Of a stretch of 64,000 nucleotides of DNA, positions 16,852 through 28,136 are shown one piece after another (position 1 is the first letter of the stretch; each line of letters opens with the position of its first letter). The notes under the pieces are model-generated. The model did not search any database and was not told the DNA's origin. It worked only from the letters and a program-made list of their open reading frames with translations. The stretch lies in NCBI RefSeq assembly GCF_000026545.1, contig NC_011601.1; one strand, 5' to 3'. The translations under genes and the position numbers were made by a program. Origin of the DNA: Escherichia coli O127:H6 str. E2348/69 (lineage in GTDB: Bacteria > Pseudomonadota > Gammaproteobacteria > Enterobacterales > Enterobacteriaceae).

Positions 16852-17004
16852 TTACTCGGATTCGTAAGCCGTGAAAACAGCAACCTCCGTCTGGCCAATT
16901 CGGATGTGAACCTCACAGAGGTCTTTTCTCGTTACCAGCGCCGCCACTACGGCGGTGATACAGATGACGATCAGGGCGACAATCATCGCCTTATGCTGCT
17001 TCAT
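16852..17004 (-). CDS. hokC: Hok-family type I toxin
   Basis: 50-aa ORF MKQHKAMIVALIVICITAVVAALVTRKDLCEVHIRIGQTEVAVFTAYESE. Confidence 0.85.
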   Translation of the reverse strand: MKQHKAMIVALIVICITAVVAALVTRKDLCEVHIRIGQTEVAVFTAYESE

Positions 17005-17061
17005 TGCTCTCTTCTCCTTGACCTTTCGGTCAGTAAGAGGCACTCTACATGTGTTCTGCAT
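16852..17061 (-). CDS. mokC: mokC, overlapping reading frame that enables hokC translation
   Basis: in-frame upstream Met (MQNTCRVPLTDRKVKEKRA...) extends hokC to 69 aa, as in hok/mok loci. Confidence 0.65.
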   Translation of the reverse strand: MQNTCRVPLTDRKVKEKRAMKQHKAMIVALIVICITAVVAALVTRKDLCEVHIRIGQTEVAVFTAYESE

Positions 17062-17107
17062 ATAGGGGGCCTCGGGTTGATGGTAAAATATCACTCGGGG
17101 CTTTTCT
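17053..17107 (+). ncRNA. sokC: sokC antisense RNA (approximate placement)
   Basis: placed by position relative to the mokC start, by analogy with hok/sok loci; boundaries not verified from sequence. Confidence 0.3.
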
Positions 17108-17618
17108 CTATCTGCCGTTCAGCCAATGCCTGAGACAGACAGCCTCAAGCACCCGCTGCTATTATACTGCGCTTTTAATTCACTTCTGTTTTATCAATTC
17201 TTTTTCTGAAGACGCCTCGCATTTTTGCGGAATAATATTTCAATACATCAATTTATTTAACTTAAATATATCCAGGGATTCACAAAAAAAGGTGTTTTCC
17301 TCTATCAAAAGTGAATGGCTAAAGGAAATTAATTATTAAAGGTTACTGTAATACTATAGAGAGATAAAGAAATACGTTCAGCAGCCAATGCTAAGTTCAT
17401 CATGAAAAATGCCTATAAATCAAAGGGTGATGTTTAAAACAGACACATTTTCTGAAACACGATATCCCTCCGCCCGTTCGCAAAAGTAATCTGCGATCTT
17501 CATCACGCTTCGATAGTCATCTTTAAATATACTGGCCTGGTCATTCTTAATAAAAATGAATTGTCTGGTGTATTAATTCCTATGGAATCATAAAAACAAT
17601 GAATGGAGAACATATTAT

Positions 17619-18380
17619 ATGTCTGCCAAAAGACGACTTCTTATTGCGTGTACCCTGATAACAGCTATCTATCATTTTCCTGCATATTCTTCATTAGAAT
17701 ATAAAGGAACCTTTGGTTCAATAAATGCGGGTTATGCAGACTGGAATAGTGGATTTGTAAACACTCACCGTGGTGAAGTATGGAAAGTGACTGCGGATTT
17801 TGGGGTAAATTTTAAAGAAGCAGAATTTTACTCATTTTATGAAAGTAATGTACTCAATCATGCTGTAGCAGGGAGAAATCATACGGTTTCAGCAATGACG
17901 CATGTCAGACTCTTTGACTCTGATATGACATTCTTTGGCAAAATTTATGGCCAATGGGATAACTCATGGGGTGACGATCTGGACATGTTTTATGGATTCG
18001 GTTACCTCGGCTGGAACGGCGAGTGGGGCTTTTTTAAACCGTATATTGGATTGCATAATCAATCTGGTGACTACGTATCAGCTAAATATGGTCAAACGAA
18101 TGGTTGGAATGGTTATGTTGTTGGCTGGACAGCAGTATTACCATTTACGTTATTTGACGAAAAATTTGTTTTATCTAACTGGAATGAAATAGAACTGGAC
18201 AGGAACGATGCTTACACGGAGCAGCAATTTGGCCGGAACGGGTTAAATGGCGGTTTAACTATTGCCTGGAAGTTCTATCCTCGCTGGAAAGCCAGTGTGA
18301 CGTGGCGTTATTTCGATAATAAGCTGGGCTACGATGGCTTTGGCGATCAAATGATTTATATGCTTGGTTATGATTTCTAA
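17619..18380 (+). CDS. small outer-membrane beta-barrel channel, Tsx/OmpK-like (KdgM-like is an alternative)
   Basis: 253-aa ORF with N-terminal signal-like region, Trp/Tyr/Gly-rich alternating segments (WNGEWGFF, GWNGYVVGW) and C-terminal ...MLGYDF ending in Phe; low-GC gene preceded by ggagaa RBS. Confidence 0.65.
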   Translation: MSAKRRLLIACTLITAIYHFPAYSSLEYKGTFGSINAGYADWNSGFVNTHRGEVWKVTADFGVNFKEAEFYSFYESNVLNHAVAGRNHTVSAMTHVRLFDSDMTFFGKIYGQWDNSWGDDLDMFYGFGYLGWNGEWGFFKPYIGLHNQSGDYVSAKYGQTNGWNGYVVGWTAVLPFTLFDEKFVLSNWNEIELDRNDAYTEQQFGRNGLNGGLTIAWKFYPRWKASVTWRYFDNKLGYDGFGDQMIYMLGYDF

Positions 18381-18400
18381 TTTTTTATCAGGGAATAATT

Positions 18401-19894
18401 ATGCAGAAAACGTTAATGGCCAGTTTGATCGGCCTTACAGTTTGCACAGGGAATGCTTTTAGTCCTGCCTTAGCCGCAGAGGCTAAACAACCTAATTTAG
18501 TCATTATTATGGCGGATGATTTAGGTTATGGCGATTTAGCAACATATGGTCATCAGATCGTTAAAACACCTAATATCGACAGGCTTGCCCAGGAAGGGGT
18601 CAAATTTACTGACTACTATGCCCCCGCTCCTTTAAGTTCACCTTCACGCGCAGGGCTATTAACCGGCCGGATGCCATTTCGTACTGGAATTCGCTCATGG
18701 ATTCCTTCAGGCAAAGATGTTGCCTTAGGGCGTAACGAACTCACGATTGCTAATCTACTCAAAGCGCAAGGGTACGACACGGCAATGATGGGTAAGCTGC
18801 ATCTGAATGCAGGCGGCGATCGCACCGATCAGCCACAAGCACAAGATATGGGCTTTGATTACTCACTGGTTAATACGGCGGGCTTTGTTACCGACGCCAC
18901 GCTGGATAACGCTAAAGAACGCCCGCGTTATGGCATGGTTTACCCGACAGGCTGGCTACGTAACGGGCAACCCACTCCACGAGCCGATAAAATGAGCGGT
19001 GAGTATGTCAGTTCGGAAGTCGTCAACTGGCTGGATAACAAAAAGGACAGCAAGCCTTTCTTCCTCTATGTTGCTTTTACCGAAGTGCATAGCCCCCTGG
19101 CTTCGCCCAAAAAATACCTCGATATGTACTCACAATATATGAGCGCGTATCAGAAGCAGCATCCTGATTTATTTTATGGCGACTGGGCAGACAAACCCTG
19201 GCGTGGTGTGGGGGAATATTATGCCAATATCAGCTATCTGGATGCACAGGTTGGAAAAGTGCTGGATAAAATCAAAGCGATGGGTGAAGAAGATAACACC
19301 ATCGTTATTTTTACCAGTGATAACGGTCCGGTAACGCGTGAAGCGCGCAAAGTGTATGAGCTGAATTTGGCAGGGGAAACGGATGGATTACGCGGTCGCA
19401 AGGATAACCTTTGGGAAGGCGGAATTCGTGTTCCAGCCATTATTAAATATGGTAAACATCTACCACAGGGAATGGTTTCAGATACACCCGTTTATGGTCT
19501 GGACTGGATGCCTACTTTAGCGAAAATGATGAACTTCAAATTACCTACAGACCGTACTTTCGATGGTGAATCGCTGGTTCCTGTTCTTGAGCAAAAAGCA
19601 TTGAAACGCGAAAAGCCATTAATTTTCGGGATTGATATGCCATTCCAGGATGATCCAACCGATGAATGGGCGATCCGTGATGGTGACTGGAAGATGATTA
19701 TCGATCGCAATAATAAACCGAAATATCTCTACAATCTGAAATCTGATCGTTATGAAACACTTAATCTGATCGGTAAAAAACCAGATATTGAAAAACAGAT
19801 GTATGGTAAGTTTTTAAAATATAAAACTGATATTGATAATGATTCTCTAATGAAAGCCAGAGGTGATAAACCAGAAGCGGTGACCTGGGGCTAA
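18401..19894 (+). CDS. periplasmic sulfatase, Ser-type
   Basis: 497-aa ORF; signal peptide ending ALAAEA; sulfatase signature PLSSPSRAGLLTG with Ser at the formylglycine position; conserved N-terminal IIMADDLGYGD metal-binding region. Confidence 0.85.
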   Translation: MQKTLMASLIGLTVCTGNAFSPALAAEAKQPNLVIIMADDLGYGDLATYGHQIVKTPNIDRLAQEGVKFTDYYAPAPLSSPSRAGLLTGRMPFRTGIRSWIPSGKDVALGRNELTIANLLKAQGYDTAMMGKLHLNAGGDRTDQPQAQDMGFDYSLVNTAGFVTDATLDNAKERPRYGMVYPTGWLRNGQPTPRADKMSGEYVSSEVVNWLDNKKDSKPFFLYVAFTEVHSPLASPKKYLDMYSQYMSAYQKQHPDLFYGDWADKPWRGVGEYYANISYLDAQVGKVLDKIKAMGEEDNTIVIFTSDNGPVTREARKVYELNLAGETDGLRGRKDNLWEGGIRVPAIIKYGKHLPQGMVSDTPVYGLDWMPTLAKMMNFKLPTDRTFDGESLVPVLEQKALKREKPLIFGIDMPFQDDPTDEWAIRDGDWKMIIDRNNKPKYLYNLKSDRYETLNLIGKKPDIEKQMYGKFLKYKTDIDNDSLMKARGDKPEAVTWG

Positions 19895-19942
19895 CCTGAT
19901 AATCATAATAAATGTAATGTATGCCATTTAGGGCTATGCCCG

Positions 19943-19979
19943 CCTGATTCAGTGCTACGCATTGAATCAGGTTCTTTTC
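19943..19979 (+). terminator. putative rho-independent terminator after the sulfatase gene
   Basis: 9-bp stem cctgattca / tgaatcagg with 11-nt loop, followed by ttcttttcg. Confidence 0.45.
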
Positions 19980-20016
19980 GCGTTGAACAATATCAAGATA
20001 CGGCTATTCGCAGGGA

Positions 20017-21282
20017 GTGGATATGTTTACCAACGTAAATGTTGATTGTTGCAAAACACCAGGATGTAAAAACCTGGGGTTGCTGAATAGCCAGGATTAT
20101 GTCGCACAGGGTAAAAATATTTTATGCCGTGAATGTGGTTACTTGTTTCCAGTGATATCTGAACAGTCGCTTAATATTTATCGTAATATTGTGAATCACT
20201 CCTGGAGAGGTTTGATTTGCCAATGTTCAACTTGCGGAGGCACGTCCCTCAAAAAATATGGATATTCTGCACAAGGCCAGAGAAGAATGTATTGCCATCA
20301 TTGTGAGAAAACATTTATCACTCTGGAACATGTAATTACCACACCACGAGGAGCCCAGTTAGCATTGATGATTGAGCAAGGGGAGGCACTTGCGGATATC
20401 AGAAAGTCATTACTTCTTAACAGCACTGGACTTAGCCGTGAACTGTTAAAATTAGCGCGTGAAGCAAACTATAAAGAAAGTCGACAGTGTTTCCCAGCTT
20501 CTGATATTACCCTGAGTACCCGCGCTTTTCGCGTCAAGTATAATGGTAGCAATAACTCTCTTTATGCTCTTGTTACCGCAGAAGAACAAAGCGGCAGGGT
20601 GGTTGCCATCTCAACCAATTACTCCTCATCTGCCGTAGAGCAACATTATCAATACACATCGAACTATGAAGAGCGTATGTCTCCAGGGACGCTGGCACAT
20701 CATGTCCAGCGCAAAGAGTTACTTACTATGCGGCGGGATACCTTGTTTGATATTGATTACGGCCCGGCAGTTTTACATCAAAACGATCCGGGAATGTTGG
20801 TAAAACCGGTTCTTCCGGCATATCGCCATTTTGAACTGGTCAGAATACTGACCGATGAGCATTCCAACAACGTTCAGCATTACCTTGATCACGAATGCTT
20901 TATATTGGGCGGCTGCCTGATGGCTAATTTGCAGCATATTCATCAAGGTCGCTGCCATATTTCCTTTGTCAAAGAGCGCGGTGTGGCACCCGCCACCATT
21001 GATTTTCCACCGCGATTATTCCTTAGTGGTGGGGTACGAAATAATGTCTGGCGTGCATTTTCTAACCGCAATTATTCAATGGCTGTATGCAATCTCACTG
21101 GCAGTAAGAAAGTCCGCGAGATGCGGCATGCAACATTGAACAGTGCGACGCGTTTTATCCACTTTGTGGAGAACCATCCTTTCCTTATATCATTGAACCG
21201 AATGTCTCCTGCGAATGTCGTTTCTACATTAGATATCCTCAAACATCTGTGGAATAAAAAACTAGAGCATGGAACAATTTAA
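20017..21282 (+). CDS. cysteine-rich hypothetical protein with N-terminal zinc-ribbon-like region
   Basis: 421-aa ORF; first ~100 aa carry CCx4C, CxxC, CxCxxC and YCHHCEKTF motifs resembling transposase/InsA-type zinc ribbons, followed by a possible HTH; no CxxxCxxC radical-SAM motif; AGGGAG RBS favours the ATG at 20023 over the GTG at 20017. Confidence 0.6.
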   Translation: MDMFTNVNVDCCKTPGCKNLGLLNSQDYVAQGKNILCRECGYLFPVISEQSLNIYRNIVNHSWRGLICQCSTCGGTSLKKYGYSAQGQRRMYCHHCEKTFITLEHVITTPRGAQLALMIEQGEALADIRKSLLLNSTGLSRELLKLAREANYKESRQCFPASDITLSTRAFRVKYNGSNNSLYALVTAEEQSGRVVAISTNYSSSAVEQHYQYTSNYEERMSPGTLAHHVQRKELLTMRRDTLFDIDYGPAVLHQNDPGMLVKPVLPAYRHFELVRILTDEHSNNVQHYLDHECFILGGCLMANLQHIHQGRCHISFVKERGVAPATIDFPPRLFLSGGVRNNVWRAFSNRNYSMAVCNLTGSKKVREMRHATLNSATRFIHFVENHPFLISLNRMSPANVVSTLDILKHLWNKKLEHGTI

Positions 21283-21516
21283 TTATTACTTTTCCGAATA
21301 ATTTCTTCAGTAATCTTGACATTAGACTATGATTAATGGGGTTTAAGGTCATCAGCCGCCGCTTTCGGGCATCAAAAACTCATCTCTCGCTGATGGCGCA
21401 ATTCTTTTAATAGGTCGTAAAAAGCGAGCTATTCCTACACTATAATCTGATTTTAACGATGATTCGTGCGGGGTAAAATCGTGAAAACGATCTATTCACC
21501 TGAAGAGAAATAAAAA

Positions 21517-22683
21517 GTGAAACATCTGCATCGATTCTTTAGCAGTGATGCCTCGGGAGGCATTATTCTCATTATTGCCGCTGTATTAGCGATGATTATG
21601 GCCAACAGCGGTGCAACCAGTGGATGGTATCACGACTTTCTTGAGACGCCGGTTCAGCTCCGGGTTGGGACACTTGAGATCAACAAGAACATGCTGCTAT
21701 GGATCAATGACGCTCTGATGGCGGTATTTTTCCTGTTGGTTGGTCTGGAAGTTAAACGCGAGCTGATGCAAGGTTCGCTGGCCAGTCTGCGCCAGGCGGC
21801 ATTTCCTGTTATTGCCGCAATCGGCGGGATGATTGTCCCGGCATTGCTCTATCTGGCTTTTAACTATGCCGATCCTATCACTCGCGAAGGCTGGGCAATC
21901 CCGGCGGCGACTGACATTGCCTTTGCACTTGGTGTGTTGGCGCTGTTGGGAAGTCGTGTTCCGTTAGCGCTGAAGATCTTTTTGATGGCTCTGGCTATTA
22001 TCGACGATCTTGGGGCCATCATTATCATCGCATTGTTCTACACTAATGACTTATCGATGGCCTCTCTTGGCGTCGCGGCTGTAGCAATTGCGGTACTCGC
22101 GGTATTGAATCTGTGTGGTGTACGCCGCACGGGCGTTTATATTCTGGTTGGCGTGGTGCTGTGGACAGCGGTGTTGAAATCAGGTGTCCATGCAACGCTG
22201 GCTGGCGTCATTGTCGGCTTCTTTATTCCGTTAAAAGAGAAGCATGGGCGTTCTCCAGCGAAGCGACTGGAGCATGTGTTGCACCCGTGGGTGGCGTATC
22301 TGATTTTGCCGCTGTTTGCATTTGCTAATGCTGGCGTTTCACTGCAAGGTGTCACGCTGGAAGGTTTGACCTCCATTCTGCCATTAGGGATCATCGCTGG
22401 TTTGCTGATTGGCAAGCCACTGGGTATTAGTCTGTTCTGCTGGTTGGCGCTGCGTTTGAAACTGGCGCATCTGCCAGAGGGAACGACTTACCAGCAAATT
22501 ATGGCGGTTGGTATCCTGTGCGGTATCGGTTTTACTATGTCTATCTTTATTGCCAGCCTGGCATTTGGTAGCGTAGATCCAGAACTGATTAACTGGGCAA
22601 AATTAGGCATCCTTGTCGGTTCAATTTCTTCGGCGGTAATTGGATATAGCTGGTTACGCGTTCGTTTACGTCCATCAGTTTGA
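21517..22683 (+). CDS. nhaA: Na+/H+ antiporter
   Basis: 388-aa [25 protein letters not shown] start. Confidence 0.95.
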
Positions 22684-22742
22684 CAGGACGATGTACTGGG
22701 GAGCCATAAACGGCTCCCTTTTCATTGTTATCAGGGAGAGAA

Positions 22743-23648
22743 ATGAGCATGTCTCATATCAATTACAACCACTTGTATTACTTCTGGCATGTCTACAAAG
22801 AAGGTTCTGTGGTTGGCGCAGCGGAGGCGCTTTATTTAACACCACAAACCATTACCGGGCAGATCCGGGCGCTGGAAGAGCGCCTGCAAGGGAAACTATT
22901 TAAGCGTAAAGGACGTGGTCTGGAACCCAGCGAACTGGGGGAACTGGTCTATCGCTATGCCGATAAAATGTTCACCTTAAGCCAGGAAATGCTGGATATC
23001 GTCAACTATCGCAAAGAGTCCAACTTATTGTTTGATGTTGGTGTGGCAGATGCACTTTCCAAACGTCTGGTCAGCAGTGTTCTGGATGCCGCAGTTGTGG
23101 AAGACGAGCAGATCCATCTACGCTGTTTCGAATCGACGCACGAGATGCTTTTAGAGCAGTTGAGTCAGCATAAACTGGATATGATCATCTCTGACTGTCC
23201 GATCGATTCCACTCAGCAGGAAGGGCTGTTTTCCATGAAAATTGGCGAGTGTGGTATCAGTTTCTGGTGCACTAACCCACTACCAGAAAAGCCGTTTCCT
23301 GCCTGTCTTGAAGAGCGTCGTTTACTTATTCCGGGGCGTCGCTCAATGTTGGGGCGTAAACTATTAAACTGGTTTAACTCCCAGGGCTTGAATGTCGAAA
23401 TTTTGGGTGAGTTTGATGATGCTGCGTTGATGAAAGCCTTTGGGGCGACGCATAACGCTATTTTCGTTGCACCTTCGCTTTACGCTAATGATTTCTATAA
23501 CGATGACTCGGTTGTGGAGATAGGCCGTGTTGAGAACGTGATGGAAGAGTACCACGCGATTTTTGCCGAAAGGATGATTCAGCACCCTGCAGTACAGCGT
23601 ATCTGCAATACAGACTATTCTGCGCTGTTTACTCCAGCTTCAAAATAA
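22743..23648 (+). CDS. nhaR: LysR-family regulator of nhaA
   Basis: 301-aa [51 protein letters not shown] (HTH); track start 22725 is an extension. Confidence 0.9.
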
Positions 23649-23692
23649 ACATTTGTACTTTGCAGGCCGAATTTTGGCCTGCAGATGGATAT

Positions 23693-23720
23693 AAAAAAAC
23701 CCGCCAGAGCGGGTTTTTTT
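23693..23720. terminator. bidirectional rho-independent terminator (nhaR / rpsT)
   Basis: aaaaaaa-cccgc-cagagcggg-ttttttt: hairpin flanked by A-run and T-run between convergent genes. Confidence 0.6.
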
Positions 23721-23743
23721 ACAAAGCTGACAACAACAGGCAA

Positions 23744-24028
<285 letters not shown>

Positions 24029-24109
24029 CTATATGGACAATTCAAAGGCCGAGGAATATGCCCTTTTAGCCTTCTTTTGTCAATGGATTTGTGCAAATAA
24101 GCGCCGTTA

Positions 24110-24328
24110 ATGTGCCGGCACTCGTTACGTAGTGATGGCGCAGGATTCTACCAGCTTGCGGGGTGTGAATACAGCTTTTCCGCGAGAAAAATTGCAGCAG
24201 GCGGTCAGTTTCTTCCCATGATTTGCGCCATAGCAATGAAAAGCCACTTCTTTCTGATTTCGGTACTCAATCGCCGGTTAACCTTGACCGCTGTACAAGG
24301 TATACTCGGACGATTTTCACTGTTTTGA
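24110..24328 (+). CDS. yaaY: small uncharacterised ORF at the yaaY position
   Basis: 72-aa ORF between rpsT and ribF in the position of K-12 yaaY; coding status uncertain. Confidence 0.35.
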   Translation: MCRHSLRSDGAGFYQLAGCEYSFSARKIAAGGQFLPMICAIAMKSHFFLISVLNRRLTLTAVQGILGRFSLF

Positions 24329-24335
24329 GCCAGAC

Positions 24336-25277
24336 ATGAAGCTGATACGCGGCATACATAATCTCAGCCAGGCCCCGCAAGAAGGGTGTGTGCTGACTAT
24401 TGGTAATTTCGACGGCGTGCATCGCGGTCATCGCGCGCTGTTACAGGGCTTGCAGGAAGAAGGGCGCAAGCGCAACTTACCGGTGATGGTGATGCTTTTT
24501 GAACCTCAACCACTGGAACTGTTTGCTACTGATAAAGCCCCGGCACGGCTGACCCGGCTGCGGGAAAAACTGCGTTATCTTGCAGAGTGTGGCGTTGATT
24601 ACGTGCTGTGCGTGCGTTTTGACAGGCGTTTTGCGGCGTTAACCGCGCAAAACTTCATCAGTGATCTTCTGGTGAGGCACTTGCGGGTAAAATTTCTTGC
24701 CGTAGGTGACGATTTCCGCTTTGGCGCTGGTCGTGAAGGCGATTTCTTGTTATTACAGAAAGCGGGCATGGAATACGGCTTCGATATCACCAGCACGCAA
24801 ACTTTTTGCGAAGGTGGCGTGCGTATCAGCAGCACCGCCGTGCGTCAGGCGCTGGCGGATGACAATCTGGCTCTGGCAGAAAGTTTACTGGGGCACCCGT
24901 TTGCTATCTCCGGGCGTGTAGTCCACGGTGATGAATTAGGGCGCACTATAGGTTTCCCGACGGCGAATGTACCGCTACGCCGTCAGGTTTCCCCGGTGAA
25001 AGGGGTGTATGCGGTAGAAGTGTTGGGCCTTGGCGAAAAGCCGTTACCCGGCGTTGCAAACATCGGAACACGCCCAACGGTTGCCGGTATTCGCCAGCAA
25101 CTGGAAGTGCATTTGTTAGATGTTGCAATGGACCTTTATGGTCGCCATATACAAGTAGTGCTGCGTAAAAAAATACGCAATGAGCAGCGATTTGCATCGC
25201 TGGACGAACTGAAAGCGCAGATTGCGCGTGATGAATTAACCGCCCGCGAATTTTTTGGGCTAACAAAACCGGCTTAA
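24336..25277 (+). CDS. ribF: riboflavin kinase / FAD synthetase
   Basis: 313-aa ORF MKLIRGIHNLSQAPQEGCVLTIGNFDGVHRGH. Confidence 0.95.
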   Translation: MKLIRGIHNLSQAPQEGCVLTIGNFDGVHRGHRALLQGLQEEGRKRNLPVMVMLFEPQPLELFATDKAPARLTRLREKLRYLAECGVDYVLCVRFDRRFAALTAQNFISDLLVRHLRVKFLAVGDDFRFGAGREGDFLLLQKAGMEYGFDITSTQTFCEGGVRISSTAVRQALADDNLALAESLLGHPFAISGRVVHGDELGRTIGFPTANVPLRRQVSPVKGVYAVEVLGLGEKPLPGVANIGTRPTVAGIRQQLEVHLLDVAMDLYGRHIQVVLRKKIRNEQRFASLDELKAQIARDELTAREFFGLTKPA

Positions 25278-25319
25278 GCCTGTTATGTAATCAAACCGAA
25301 ATACGGAACCGAGAATCTG

Positions 25320-28136
25320 ATGAGTGACTATAAATCAACCCTGAATTTGCCGGAAACAGGGTTCCCGATGCGTGGCGATCTCGCCAAGCGCGAACCGGGA
25401 ATGCTGGCGCGTTGGACTGATGATGATCTGTACGGCATCATTCGTGCAGCTAAAAAAGGCAAAAAAACCTTCATTCTGCATGATGGCCCTCCTTATGCGA
25501 ATGGCAGCATTCATATTGGTCACTCGGTTAACAAGATTCTGAAAGACATTATCATTAAGTCCAAAGGGCTTTCTGGATATGACTCGCCGTATGTGCCTGG
25601 CTGGGACTGTCATGGTCTGCCAATCGAACTGAAAGTAGAGCAAGAATACGGTAAGCCGGGGGAGAAATTCACCGCCGCTGAGTTCCGCGCCAAGTGCCGC
25701 GAATACGCTGCGACCCAGGTTGACGGTCAGCGCAAAGACTTTATCCGTCTGGGCGTGCTGGGCGACTGGTCGCACCCGTACCTGACCATGGACTTCAAAA
25801 CTGAAGCCAACATCATCCGCGCGCTGGGCAAAATCATCGGCAACGGTCACCTGCACAAAGGCGCGAAGCCGGTGCACTGGTGCGTTGACTGCCGTTCTGC
25901 ACTGGCAGAAGCGGAAGTTGAGTATTACGACAAAACTTCTCCGTCCATCGACGTCGCTTTCCAGGCGGTCGATCAGGATGCGCTGAAAACGAAATTTGGT
26001 GTAAGCAATGTTAACGGCCCAATTTCGCTGGTTATCTGGACCACCACGCCGTGGACGCTGCCTGCTAACCGCGCAATCTCCATTGCACCTGATTTTGATT
26101 ATGCGCTGGTGCAAATCGACGGTCAGGCCGTGATCCTCGCGAAAGATCTGGTTGAAAGCGTAATGCAGCGTATCGGCGTTAGCGATTACACCATTCTTGG
26201 CACGGTGAAAGGTGCCGAGCTGGAACTGTTGCGCTTTACCCATCCGTTTATGGACTTCGATGTTCCGGCAATTCTCGGCGACCACGTTACGCTGGATGCC
26301 GGTACCGGTGCCGTTCATACCGCGCCAGGCCACGGTCCGGACGACTATGTGATCGGTCAAAAATATGGTCTGGAAACCGCTAACCCGGTTGGCCCGGACG
26401 GCACTTATCTGCCGGGTACTTATCCGACTCTGGATGGCGTTAACGTCTTCAAAGCGAACGATATTGTCATTGCGTTGTTGCAGGAAAAAGGCGCACTGTT
26501 GCACGTTGAGAAAATGCAACACAGCTATCCGTGCTGCTGGCGTCATAAAACACCGATCATCTTCCGCGCGACGCCGCAGTGGTTCGTCAGCATGGATCAG
26601 AAAGGTCTGCGTGCGCAGTCACTGAAAGAGATCAAAGGCGTGCAGTGGATCCCTGACTGGGGCCAGGCGCGTATCGAGTCGATGGTTGCTAACCGTCCTG
26701 ACTGGTGTATCTCTCGTCAGCGTACCTGGGGCGTGCCGATGTCACTGTTCGTGCACAAAGACACAGAAGAACTGCATCCGCGTACTCTCGAACTGATGGA
26801 AGAAGTGGCAAAACGCGTTGAAGTTGACGGCATTCAGGCGTGGTGGGATCTCGATGCGAAAGAGATCCTCGGCGACGAAGCTGACCAGTATGTGAAAGTA
26901 CCGGATACGCTGGATGTATGGTTTGACTCCGGATCTACCCACTCTTCCGTTGTTGATGTGCGTCCGGAATTTGCCGGTCACGCAGCGGACATGTATCTGG
27001 AAGGTTCTGACCAACACCGTGGCTGGTTCATGTCTTCCCTGATGATCTCTACCGCGATGAAGGGCAAAGCGCCATATCGTCAGGTACTGACTCACGGCTT
27101 TACCGTGGATGGTCAGGGTCGCAAGATGTCTAAATCCATCGGTAACACCGTTTCGCCGCAGGATGTGATGAACAAACTGGGTGCGGATATTCTGCGTCTG
27201 TGGGTGGCATCAACCGACTACACCGGCGAAATGGCTGTTTCTGACGAGATTCTGAAACGTGCTGCCGACAGCTATCGTCGTATCCGTAACACCGCGCGCT
27301 TCCTGCTGGCAAACCTGAACGGTTTTGATCCGGCAAAAGATATGGTGAAACCGGAAGAGATGGTGGTACTGGATCGCTGGGCCGTAGGTTGTGCGAAAGC
27401 GGCACAGGAAGACATCCTCAAGGCGTACGAAGCATACGATTTCCACGAAGTGGTACAGCGTCTGATGCGCTTCTGCTCCGTTGAGATGGGGTCCTTCTAC
27501 CTCGACATCATCAAAGACCGTCAGTATACCGCCAAAGCGGACAGCGTGGCGCGTCGTAGCTGCCAGACTGCGCTGTATCACATCGCAGAAGCGCTGGTTC
27601 GCTGGATGGCACCAATCCTCTCCTTCACCGCTGATGAAGTGTGGGGTTACCTGCCGGGCGAACGTGAAAAATACGTCTTCACCGGCGAGTGGTACGAAGG
27701 CCTGTTTGGTCTGGCAGACAGTGAAGCAATGAACGATGCGTTCTGGGACGAGCTGTTGAAAGTGCGTGGCGAAGTGAACAAAGTCATTGAGCAAGCGCGT
27801 GCCGATAAGAAAGTGGGCGGCTCGCTGGAAGCGGCAGTAACCTTGTATGCAGAACCGGTACTGGCGGCGAAACTGACCGCGCTGGGCGATGAATTACGAT
27901 TTGTCCTGTTGACCTCCGGCGCTACCGTTGCAGACTATAACGACGCACCTGCTGATGCTCAGCAGAGCGAAGTACTCAAAGGTCTGAAAGTCGCGTTGAG
28001 TAAAGCCGAAGGTGAGAAGTGCCCTCGCTGCTGGCACTACACCCAGGATGTCGGCAAGGTGGCGGAACACGCAGAAATCTGCGGCCGCTGTGTCAGCAAC
28101 GTCGCCGGTGACGGTGAAAAACGTAAGTTTGCCTGA
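25320..28136 (+). CDS. ileS: isoleucyl-tRNA synthetase
   Basis: 938-aa ORF with HIGH motif ([12 protein letters not shown]) and KMSKS motif. Confidence 0.97.

Follow-up and report, generated by a model that had tools for sequence, protein, structure and literature searches.

The 64,000-nucleotide stretch of the Escherichia coli O127:H6 strain E2348/69 chromosome analysed here (contig NC_011601.1; hereafter the window) carries, between the hokC/mokC toxin gene and nhaA, an AT-rich segment of 3.95 kb (positions 17339-21288) with three co-directional genes. They encode a Tsx/OmpK-family outer-membrane channel, a periplasmic sulfatase and a cysteine-rich protein, referred to below as the third protein. 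The reading that we favour, with moderate confidence, is that the segment descends from an ancestral four-gene cassette in which Escherichia lost the gene for a radical-SAM/SPASM maturase (an anaerobic sulfatase-maturating enzyme, anSME), switched the catalytic residue of the sulfatase from Cys to Ser and kept the three remaining genes under purifying selection. A first-pass annotation, made from the DNA letters, had already listed the three genes with these assignments, and Pfam, NCBIfam, RefSeq and motif data match it; its view of the segment as a strain-specific island is not sustained by the comparison with other genera.

A cassette shared by seven enterobacterial lineages

Orthologs of the third gene occur across the Enterobacteriaceae at 55-85% identity. 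Their genomic context was examined in Klebsiella quasipneumoniae, K. oxytoca, K. spallanzanii, Salmonella enterica, Citrobacter spp., Kosakonia, Phytobacter spp., an unclassified enterobacterial metagenome-assembled genome (MAG), E. albertii, E. whittamii and Escherichia sp. MOD1. In seven lineages (Escherichia, Salmonella, Citrobacter, Klebsiella, Kosakonia, Phytobacter and the enterobacterial MAG) the cassette is the immediate upstream neighbour of nhaA, and in five of them, where the contig extends far enough, the dnaJ flank is visible as well. The usual order is channel, sulfatase, anSME and third gene. The whole four-gene unit is also found at a different chromosomal site in the enterobacterial assembly GCA_032052055.1, with a third gene 34% identical to that of the window, and this relocation argues that the four genes form a functional unit. 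Since the same cassette stands upstream of nhaA across seven lineages, the island-less state is most simply explained by deletion. The simplest history suggested by these alignments is thus that the cassette was present between dnaJ and nhaA before the genera diverged and that most E. coli have deleted it.

The genes that Escherichia has retained are strongly constrained. Ratios of nonsynonymous to synonymous substitution (dN/dS) are 0.027 for the channel in comparison with E. albertii, 0.028-0.029 for the sulfatase and 0.09 for the third protein, at synonymous divergences (dS) of 0.5-1.2 for the three genes. Because these ratios are combined with intact motifs, the three genes are, as judged from their substitution patterns, still functional in Escherichia.

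Loss of the maturase gene and the switch from cysteine to serine

The sulfatase gene (18401-19894, plus strand) encodes a 497-residue protein of the S1 type that matches the Pfam Sulfatase domain (PF00884) over residues 31-378 (3.9e-59). It is nearly identical to PDB entry 3ED4 (1140 bits, three differences over 492 aligned residues), an unpublished structural genomics entry described as a "putative arylsulfatase from E. coli" that has the same SSPSR motif and comes as a structure only, with neither substrate nor function attached. The translation contains the motifs MADDLGYGD, S79SPSRAGLLTG, GKLH and SDNG, and, as read from its N-terminus, a Sec-type signal peptide ending in ALA-AE with no twin-arginine motif. 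The sequence S79-S-P-S-R thus makes the enzyme a Ser-type sulfatase, as the first reading of the DNA had it.

The residue at this position, which is the one converted to formylglycine in active sulfatases, separates Escherichia from its relatives. The Ser79 codon of the window (18635-18637, plus strand) is AGT, and so is that of all seven Escherichia sequences compared (the B2, F and SX4 alleles of E. coli, two E. albertii, E. whittamii and Escherichia sp. MOD1), whereas all 14 loci from other genera have a Cys codon, TGT or TGC, whether or not they kept anSME. Given this distribution, the Ser type is a derived, Escherichia-specific state, reached, according to the alignment, through one T-to-A substitution at 18635.

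The second change concerns the maturase. In the orthologous cassettes of Klebsiella, Salmonella and Citrobacter, a radical-SAM/SPASM gene of about 1.2 kb (anSME) is located between a hairpin that follows the sulfatase gene and the ribosome-binding site (RBS) of the third gene. In all Escherichia sampled this gene is absent, and the gap from hairpin to RBS measures a few dozen to about 75 bases; in the window, the entire spacer between sulfatase and third gene is 128 nt long. A tblastn search with the Klebsiella and Salmonella anSME as queries detected no remnant in the 64-kb window. The hairpin itself (19942-19979, plus strand) has the features of an intrinsic terminator, with a 14-bp stem, a 3-nt loop and the tract TTCTTTT. 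Six of its base pairs show compensatory changes in an alignment of Escherichia, Klebsiella, Salmonella and Citrobacter, and it is kept in all lineages examined, with anSME present or not. It is followed by the deletion scar and the ribosome-binding region of the third gene, ATTCGCAGGGAGTGGAT (19980-20022, plus strand), within which the RBS region ATTCGCAGGGAGTG is conserved across cassettes. Since hairpin and RBS are both retained, the deletion of anSME was a clean one. Immediately 5' of the terminator there is a second, smaller hairpin (GTATGCC...GGGC.ATGCCC), likewise conserved, and the two together may constitute an attenuator that sets the ratio of sulfatase to maturase and third-gene expression.

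Escherichia is not alone in having lost the gene. anSME is also missing, with different scars, from K. oxytoca, K. spallanzanii, Phytobacter massiliensis and Kluyvera intermedia, and the scars indicate that these lineages lost it independently of Escherichia. Such recurrent loss from Cys-type lineages fits maturation of the Cys-type enzyme by other routes. In E. coli, the only candidate maturases suggested by sequence are AslB and YdeM, to which the maturase of the orthologous cassettes is 48% and 44% identical, respectively. The aslB gene is found in 5424 of 5426 complete E. coli genomes, and the partner sulfatases of the two enzymes, AslA and YdeN, are of the Ser type. The switch to Ser may have tied the Escherichia enzyme to AslB/YdeM and hence to anaerobiosis.

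In their general composition, the pairs AtsA/AtsB of Klebsiella and AslA/AslB and YdeN/YdeM of E. coli are alike: an S1 sulfatase of the periplasm is combined with a maturase of the radical-SAM/SPASM type. The Escherichia cassette differs in having no adjacent maturase and in having, as companions of its sulfatase, a Tsx-type channel and a protein with a transposase fold; moreover, the sulfatase is only 25-30% identical to AslA and YdeN although they are alike in being of the Ser type. The "acid-inducible sulfatase" of Salmonella (Das 2013) was considered as a related enzyme and set aside, as it corresponds to AslA/STM0084 at another locus.

Loss of anSME together with a Cys-to-Ser switch restricted to Escherichia could also mean that the protein is no longer a sulfatase, residue 79 remaining unmodified and the protein being inactive, a binding protein or a hydrolase with a Ser nucleophile. 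E. coli is classically arylsulfatase-negative, which would agree with such a loss of function. A crystallography paper places 3ED4 among active-site mutants, the sulfate not touching the metal in that structure (PMC9063841). Purifying selection is in itself compatible with repurposing and does not alone decide the matter. Nevertheless, a dN/dS of 0.03 has been maintained over deep divergence, neither the complete S-x-P-x-R-xxxx-TG sequence nor the motifs for the metal and sulfate ligands vary, and the channel gene has been retained with it under equal constraint, so that we regard an inactive or repurposed protein as doubtful. The Pro and Arg of the maturation motif are required for formylglycine formation alone. 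As the C/S-x-P-x-R-xxxx-TG motif is conserved, conversion of Ser79 to formylglycine most likely still takes place; the motifs for the metal ligands are intact as well.

Ancestral cassette or acquired island

The limits of the segment were defined by BLAST and by alignment with an island-less strain, which place the edges at about 17273/17339 on the left and 21272/21288 on the right. In island-less strains such as K-12, mokC and nhaA are about 585 bp apart; the 3.95 kb measured here bears out the earlier estimate of some 3.9 kb lacking from K-12. The gene order is dnaK, dnaJ, hokC/mokC on the minus strand, the three co-directional open reading frames (ORFs) and nhaA (21517-22683). The hokC/mokC toxin ORF (16852-17094, minus strand), immediately to the left of the cassette, is accompanied by the sok antisense RNA sokC (17002-17154; Rfam RF01794, 116 bits). 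This was the sole Rfam match in the window, which thus contains no riboswitch recognised by Rfam, and neither an integrase nor a tRNA gene is present at the cassette according to the ORF list and Rfam. K-12-type strains have, in addition, an IS4-like (IS421/IS186) element within the dnaJ-nhaA interval, upstream of the empty site.

A presence/absence survey found the segment in 1277 of 5426 complete E. coli genomes (about 23.5%), in every case chromosomal and, with hardly an exception, single-copy; the genes are accordingly not core in this species, in keeping with the first reading. Identity to the window is at least 99% in 916 genomes, 95-99% in 131 (about 95.7% in those sampled) and 80-90% in 220 (about 86% in those sampled). 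Carriers include phylogroup B2 (the enteropathogenic E2348/69, and 536), phylogroup F (IAI39, with the 86% allele) and other strains, while K-12-type strains, O157 Sakai (phylogroup E) and most other genomes are without it. Between B2 and F, the dS of the cassette is 0.6-1.0, compared with 0.06 for dnaJ. Neighbouring nhaA is affected as well (region compared, nhaA and nhaR, 21517-23650): between its B2 and non-B2 alleles dS is 0.33, again against 0.06 for dnaJ, which reproduces the nhaAR divergence described by Lescat et al. 2014 (PMC4182557). Over 18000-25900, the B2 cassette and nhaA allele are about 96-97% identical to those of E. whittamii (cryptic clade II) and only 84-92% identical to the phylogroup F allele. 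E. whittamii was considered as the specific donor of the B2 allele, but the flanking core genes are also about 95-97% identical and the similarity is therefore not diagnostic.

Several of these properties would suit a low-GC foreign island inserted in the B2 lineage, possibly mobilised by the third gene and leaving a target-site duplication behind. GC values of 0.33-0.47 in the segment contrast with 0.51-0.58 for dnaJ and nhaA, and the three genes have 40-45% where their flanks have 51-55%, confirming the AT-richness noted earlier. The cassette is bordered by a 13-nt direct repeat whose left copy, AAATTAATTATTA (17326-17338), forms the cassette edge and whose right copy, AATTTAATTATTA (21276-21288), overlaps the stop codon of the third gene. 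The two copies agree in 12 of 13 bases, and a single copy is present at the empty site of island-less strains. The transposase fold and IS1-type zinc ribbon of the third protein, the patchy spread among genomes and the closeness of the B2 allele to E. whittamii rather than to F point in the same direction, and Lescat et al. infer horizontal transfer with multiple gains and losses (PMC4182557). Seven enterobacterial lineages have the cassette in this same position, however, and its GC content is below that of the flanks in every host, tracking that of the host: 44-51% against 58% in Klebsiella, 45-52% against 56% in Salmonella, and likewise lower in Citrobacter. A low GC content therefore characterises the cassette itself and is no sign of recent arrival. 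The sulfatase is 88-89% identical in amino acids to its Klebsiella and Salmonella orthologs, a level similar to that of NhaA (85-92% between E. coli and the same genera). The third protein lacks a DDE triad and is encoded once per genome, the 86% allele and E. albertii have only a degenerate form of the repeat (about 8-9 nt, TTATTAC), and no terminal inverted repeats span the third gene or the cassette ends. The best candidate for transposon-type inverted ends (17477-17490/21285-21298, 13/14) has one arm inside the cassette and the other in the core flank, is close to chance level and was rejected. Alleles have likely been exchanged by homologous recombination among Escherichia, yet this is not acquisition de novo. 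On the sequence comparisons taken together, a recent foreign island is unlikely, and we retain the ancestral cassette as the better account of the locus.

The third protein

The third gene (20023-21282, plus strand) had been described as a co-directional gene for a cysteine-rich protein of 421 residues. Orientation and composition stand, but alignment of homologs and the RefSeq annotation both place the start at ATG 20023 and not at GTG 20017, which shortens the product to 419 residues. It contains eight invariant Cys arranged in two CxxC...CxxC zinc-ribbon motifs of the IS1 InsA type. Database matches are otherwise sparse: no significant Pfam domain was found, the NCBIfam IS1/IS1595 zinc-binding domain is barely reached (28.1 bits for a cutoff of 28), PHROGs yields only a weak zinc-ribbon "transposase" match, and a sequence search of the PDB gave nothing beyond compositional zinc-finger matches. 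In the Enterobacterales and Vibrionaceae, members of the family are annotated as "cytoplasmic protein" or "IS1 family transposase".

Structure prediction is more informative. With 35 close homologs only, AlphaFold returned a model with a pLDDT of 57; once distant homologs had been added, drawn from 299 profile matches among 1.8 billion representatives, the pLDDT rose to 94, with a pTM of 0.93. The predicted fold combines a helix-turn-helix (HTH) and an RNase-H/DDE-transposase domain with the two zinc ribbons. The zinc ribbon and RNase-H-like fold are thus, in the model, common to the third protein and the IS1/IS1595 transposases. The DDE triad, judged on a 47-sequence family alignment and the secondary structure of the model rather than on a three-dimensional superposition, is not conserved: strand beta-1 carries a conserved Thr and no conserved acidic residue, and strand beta-4 is followed by K/R and then the invariant P262, H290-E291 alone being conserved. 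In further contrast to IS1 InsA/InsAB' and to DDE transposases in general, the gene is single-copy (a median of one place per genome across the 1277 carriers), lacks terminal inverted repeats, and keeps its position across genera at 55-85% identity under purifying selection. The absence of a triad, of inverted repeats and of additional copies characterises the third protein, within the limits of a predicted structure, as a domesticated transposase-like protein.

Some indication of its role comes from distant paralogs (17-25% identity, 420-510 residues). All six with retrievable context adjoin genes of nucleoside or nucleotide metabolism, three being divergent and two directly downstream of them. 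Four of them have a gene for a 5'-nucleotidase-like metallophosphoesterase as neighbour, twice divergent and twice immediately upstream on the same strand; one adjoins NupC with a nucleoside phosphorylase, and another a phosphopentomutase-like protein with a phosphorylase and a NupG-like nucleoside:H+ symporter. A 5'-nucleotidase-like gene is also found beside the channel gene in the cassettes of Salmonella, Citrobacter and K. spallanzanii. At its N-terminus the third protein is closest in sequence to IS1 InsA, a DNA-binding repressor. Because of this resemblance, and because the paralogs adjoin nucleoside and 5'-nucleotidase genes, we lean, by a modest degree and on the strength of a model, towards a transcription regulator rather than a helper of maturation or export.

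A role as accessory factor in the maturation or export of the sulfatase, for instance as a metal or Fe-S protein or a chaperone acting with anSME, would explain why the third gene begins 24-27 nt after anSME in Klebsiella, Salmonella and Citrobacter and why it has eight invariant Cys; in addition, some paralogs follow 5'-nucleotidase-like genes co-directionally. In Salmonella, anSME and the third gene (SL0037-SL0038, the STM0036 operon) appear as one two-gene operon in a table of SsrB chromatin immunoprecipitation (ChIP) and expression data, which gives a 4-fold change and a peak that overlaps the 5' intergenic region (PMC2837388); apart from this entry, the literature on the Salmonella orthologs STM0032-0038 contains essentially nothing functional. 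Yet the third gene has been kept under selection in at least five lineages that have no anSME, its Cys form two zinc-ribbon motifs of the InsA type, its predicted fold is that of an HTH and RNase-H/transposase domain, and the paralogs occur with no sulfatase or anSME gene nearby, all of which makes such a role improbable. That the third protein might itself be the maturase was rejected, as it has no Radical_SAM or SPASM match and a predicted transposase fold, and a true anSME lies between sulfatase and third gene elsewhere.

Returning to the regulator, the family, which extends over Enterobacterales and Vibrionaceae, may be dedicated to operons of periplasmic ester hydrolases and nucleoside scavenging, with the sulfatase cassette, the 5'-nucleotidase-like genes and the NupC/PNP operons as instances. 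The combined proposal, that the third gene represents a family of domesticated IS1-like regulators or cofactors and that the sulfatase has been re-wired onto AslB/YdeM, is put forward only tentatively.

The channel gene and its control region

The channel gene (17619-18380, plus strand) encodes 253 residues with an N-terminal signal sequence and a C-terminal GYDF, hence an aromatic last residue. It matches Pfam Channel_Tsx (PF03502) over residues 106-253 (3.1e-13) and NCBIfam PRK11528 over its full length (3e-34), and RefSeq names it "outer membrane protein OmpK". It thus belongs to the Tsx family, as first proposed, and not to an unrelated non-porin family. Match and size (about 250 residues) are those of Tsx, Vibrio OmpK and PRK11528; its scores, however, fall below the family cutoffs (119 bits against a curated 282 for PRK11528), which sets it apart as a distinct subfamily. 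It has no close characterised relative, and sequence search of the PDB found no solved structure for it. In strain SX4, which has the 86% allele, an IS3-family element interrupts the channel gene, which exemplifies the decay that the cassette is still undergoing in some strains. Salmonella and Citrobacter have an expanded cassette with two arylsulfate-sulfotransferase-like genes and a divergent 5'-nucleotidase-like/Tsx-like pair; this Tsx-like protein is about 56% identical to the E. coli channel, compared with about 78-84% in Klebsiella, Kosakonia and Phytobacter.

Few blocks are conserved upstream of the channel gene. One is a candidate CRP-like site, TGCGATCTTCATCACG (17492-17507, plus strand), about 120 nt 5' of the start codon and matching 8 of 10 bases of TGTGA-N6-TCACA; the pattern occurs four times in the 64 kb, where about two occurrences are expected by chance. 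Another, CACATTTTCTGAAACACG (17441-17460), lies about 35 nt further 5'. Both are kept in Escherichia, Klebsiella, Kosakonia/Phytobacter and the relocated cassette. The tsx gene of K-12 is under catabolite control, and the conserved CRP-like site suggests, with CRP binding deduced from the sequence, that the same may hold for the channel promoter. The second block is a candidate operator for the third protein.

A possible pathway and its substrate

In the scheme that we propose, the empty site would have been formed by deletion at the short AT-rich direct repeat. A promoter, possibly CRP-dependent, would drive the channel and sulfatase genes up to the conserved terminator, and the channel would let a small sulfate ester into the periplasm. 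Ser79 of the sulfatase precursor would be oxidised to formylglycine in the cytoplasm by the resident AslB or YdeM, probably only anaerobically; the matured precursor would then be exported by Sec and hydrolyse the sulfate ester. The third protein would bind DNA through its zinc ribbons and HTH and regulate the cassette.

Several points weigh against this reconstruction. The Ser-type AtsA of Klebsiella reportedly needs co-expressed AtsB in E. coli, which would argue against efficient maturation in trans in the laboratory. A change from Cys to Ser after loss of the maturase is also counter-intuitive, the Cys type having more maturation routes. AslB and YdeM are still "putative" maturases in the literature, where sulfatase maturation in E. 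coli is described as incompletely understood (PMC8379841; Benjdia 2007) and a third formylglycine-forming system is suspected. Co-directional and last in the cassette, the third gene is in an atypical position for a regulator. The empty-site junction equally fits deletion at a microhomology and a target-site duplication. Finally, the B2 and F alleles differ at about 14% of nucleotides, approximately the distance between E. coli and E. albertii in this region. Such divergence implies that some lineages probably got their copy by recombination from other Escherichia and not strictly vertically, and it agrees with the view of Lescat et al. that this neighbourhood was exchanged among Escherichia lineages (PMC4182557).

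As to the substrate, a narrow Tsx-type channel and the arylsulfotransferase- and 5'-nucleotidase-like companions in Salmonella and Citrobacter together suggest small sulfate esters in place of the mucin, glycosaminoglycan or sterol compounds considered at first. Besides 3ED4, the best PDB relative of the sulfatase is human steryl sulfatase (4.6e-54), with N-acetylgalactosamine-6-sulfatases (GalNAc-6-sulfatases) and carrageenan sulfatases at about 1e-50, and relatives this distant do not allow a substrate to be assigned. The earlier idea that the system desulfates mucin or glycosaminoglycan fragments is in keeping with a sulfatase in a gut bacterium and with the presence of GalNAc-6- and carrageenan sulfatases among the distant PDB relatives, but it is very unlikely in view of the small Tsx-type barrel, the steryl sulfatase as best non-self match, the nature of the Salmonella and Citrobacter companions and the absence, in or beside the cassette in any genus examined, of a glycoside hydrolase, lyase or sugar transporter.

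Relation to earlier work and significance

The locus itself is already known: it is annotated in RefSeq, has been published as a module, and the structure of its sulfatase is in the PDB. Lescat et al. (2014, PLoS One; PMC4182557) divided the nhaAR neighbourhood of 12 Escherichia strains, E2348/69 among them, into five modules, one of which is the present segment, termed the "putative cerebroside sulfatase" module, with a GC content of 42.7% and a pattern of presence and absence across phylogroups. Locus and genes are the same, but in the sections covered the module is treated as volatile and probably acquired horizontally, and synteny across genera, the missing anSME, the Cys-to-Ser switch and the nature of the third gene are not reported there. 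What is added here is the position of the cassette across genera, the repeated loss of the maturase, the switch to Ser in Escherichia, and the transposase origin and genomic associations of the third gene.

The analysis thus draws attention to a conserved family of transposase-derived proteins and to lineages that repeatedly drop a dedicated maturase yet keep the sulfatase. Any role in gut colonisation by B2 and extraintestinal pathogenic E. coli strains is speculative. Which enzymes of E. coli mature its sulfatases has been a question since 2007, and orthologs that are about 88% identical and differ at the formylglycine position offer a natural comparison with which to address it. If the reading given here is true, E. 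coli of phylogroups B2 and F would provide a natural system in which to test the "putative" maturases AslB and YdeM and the rules that govern maturation of Cys- and Ser-type sulfatases.

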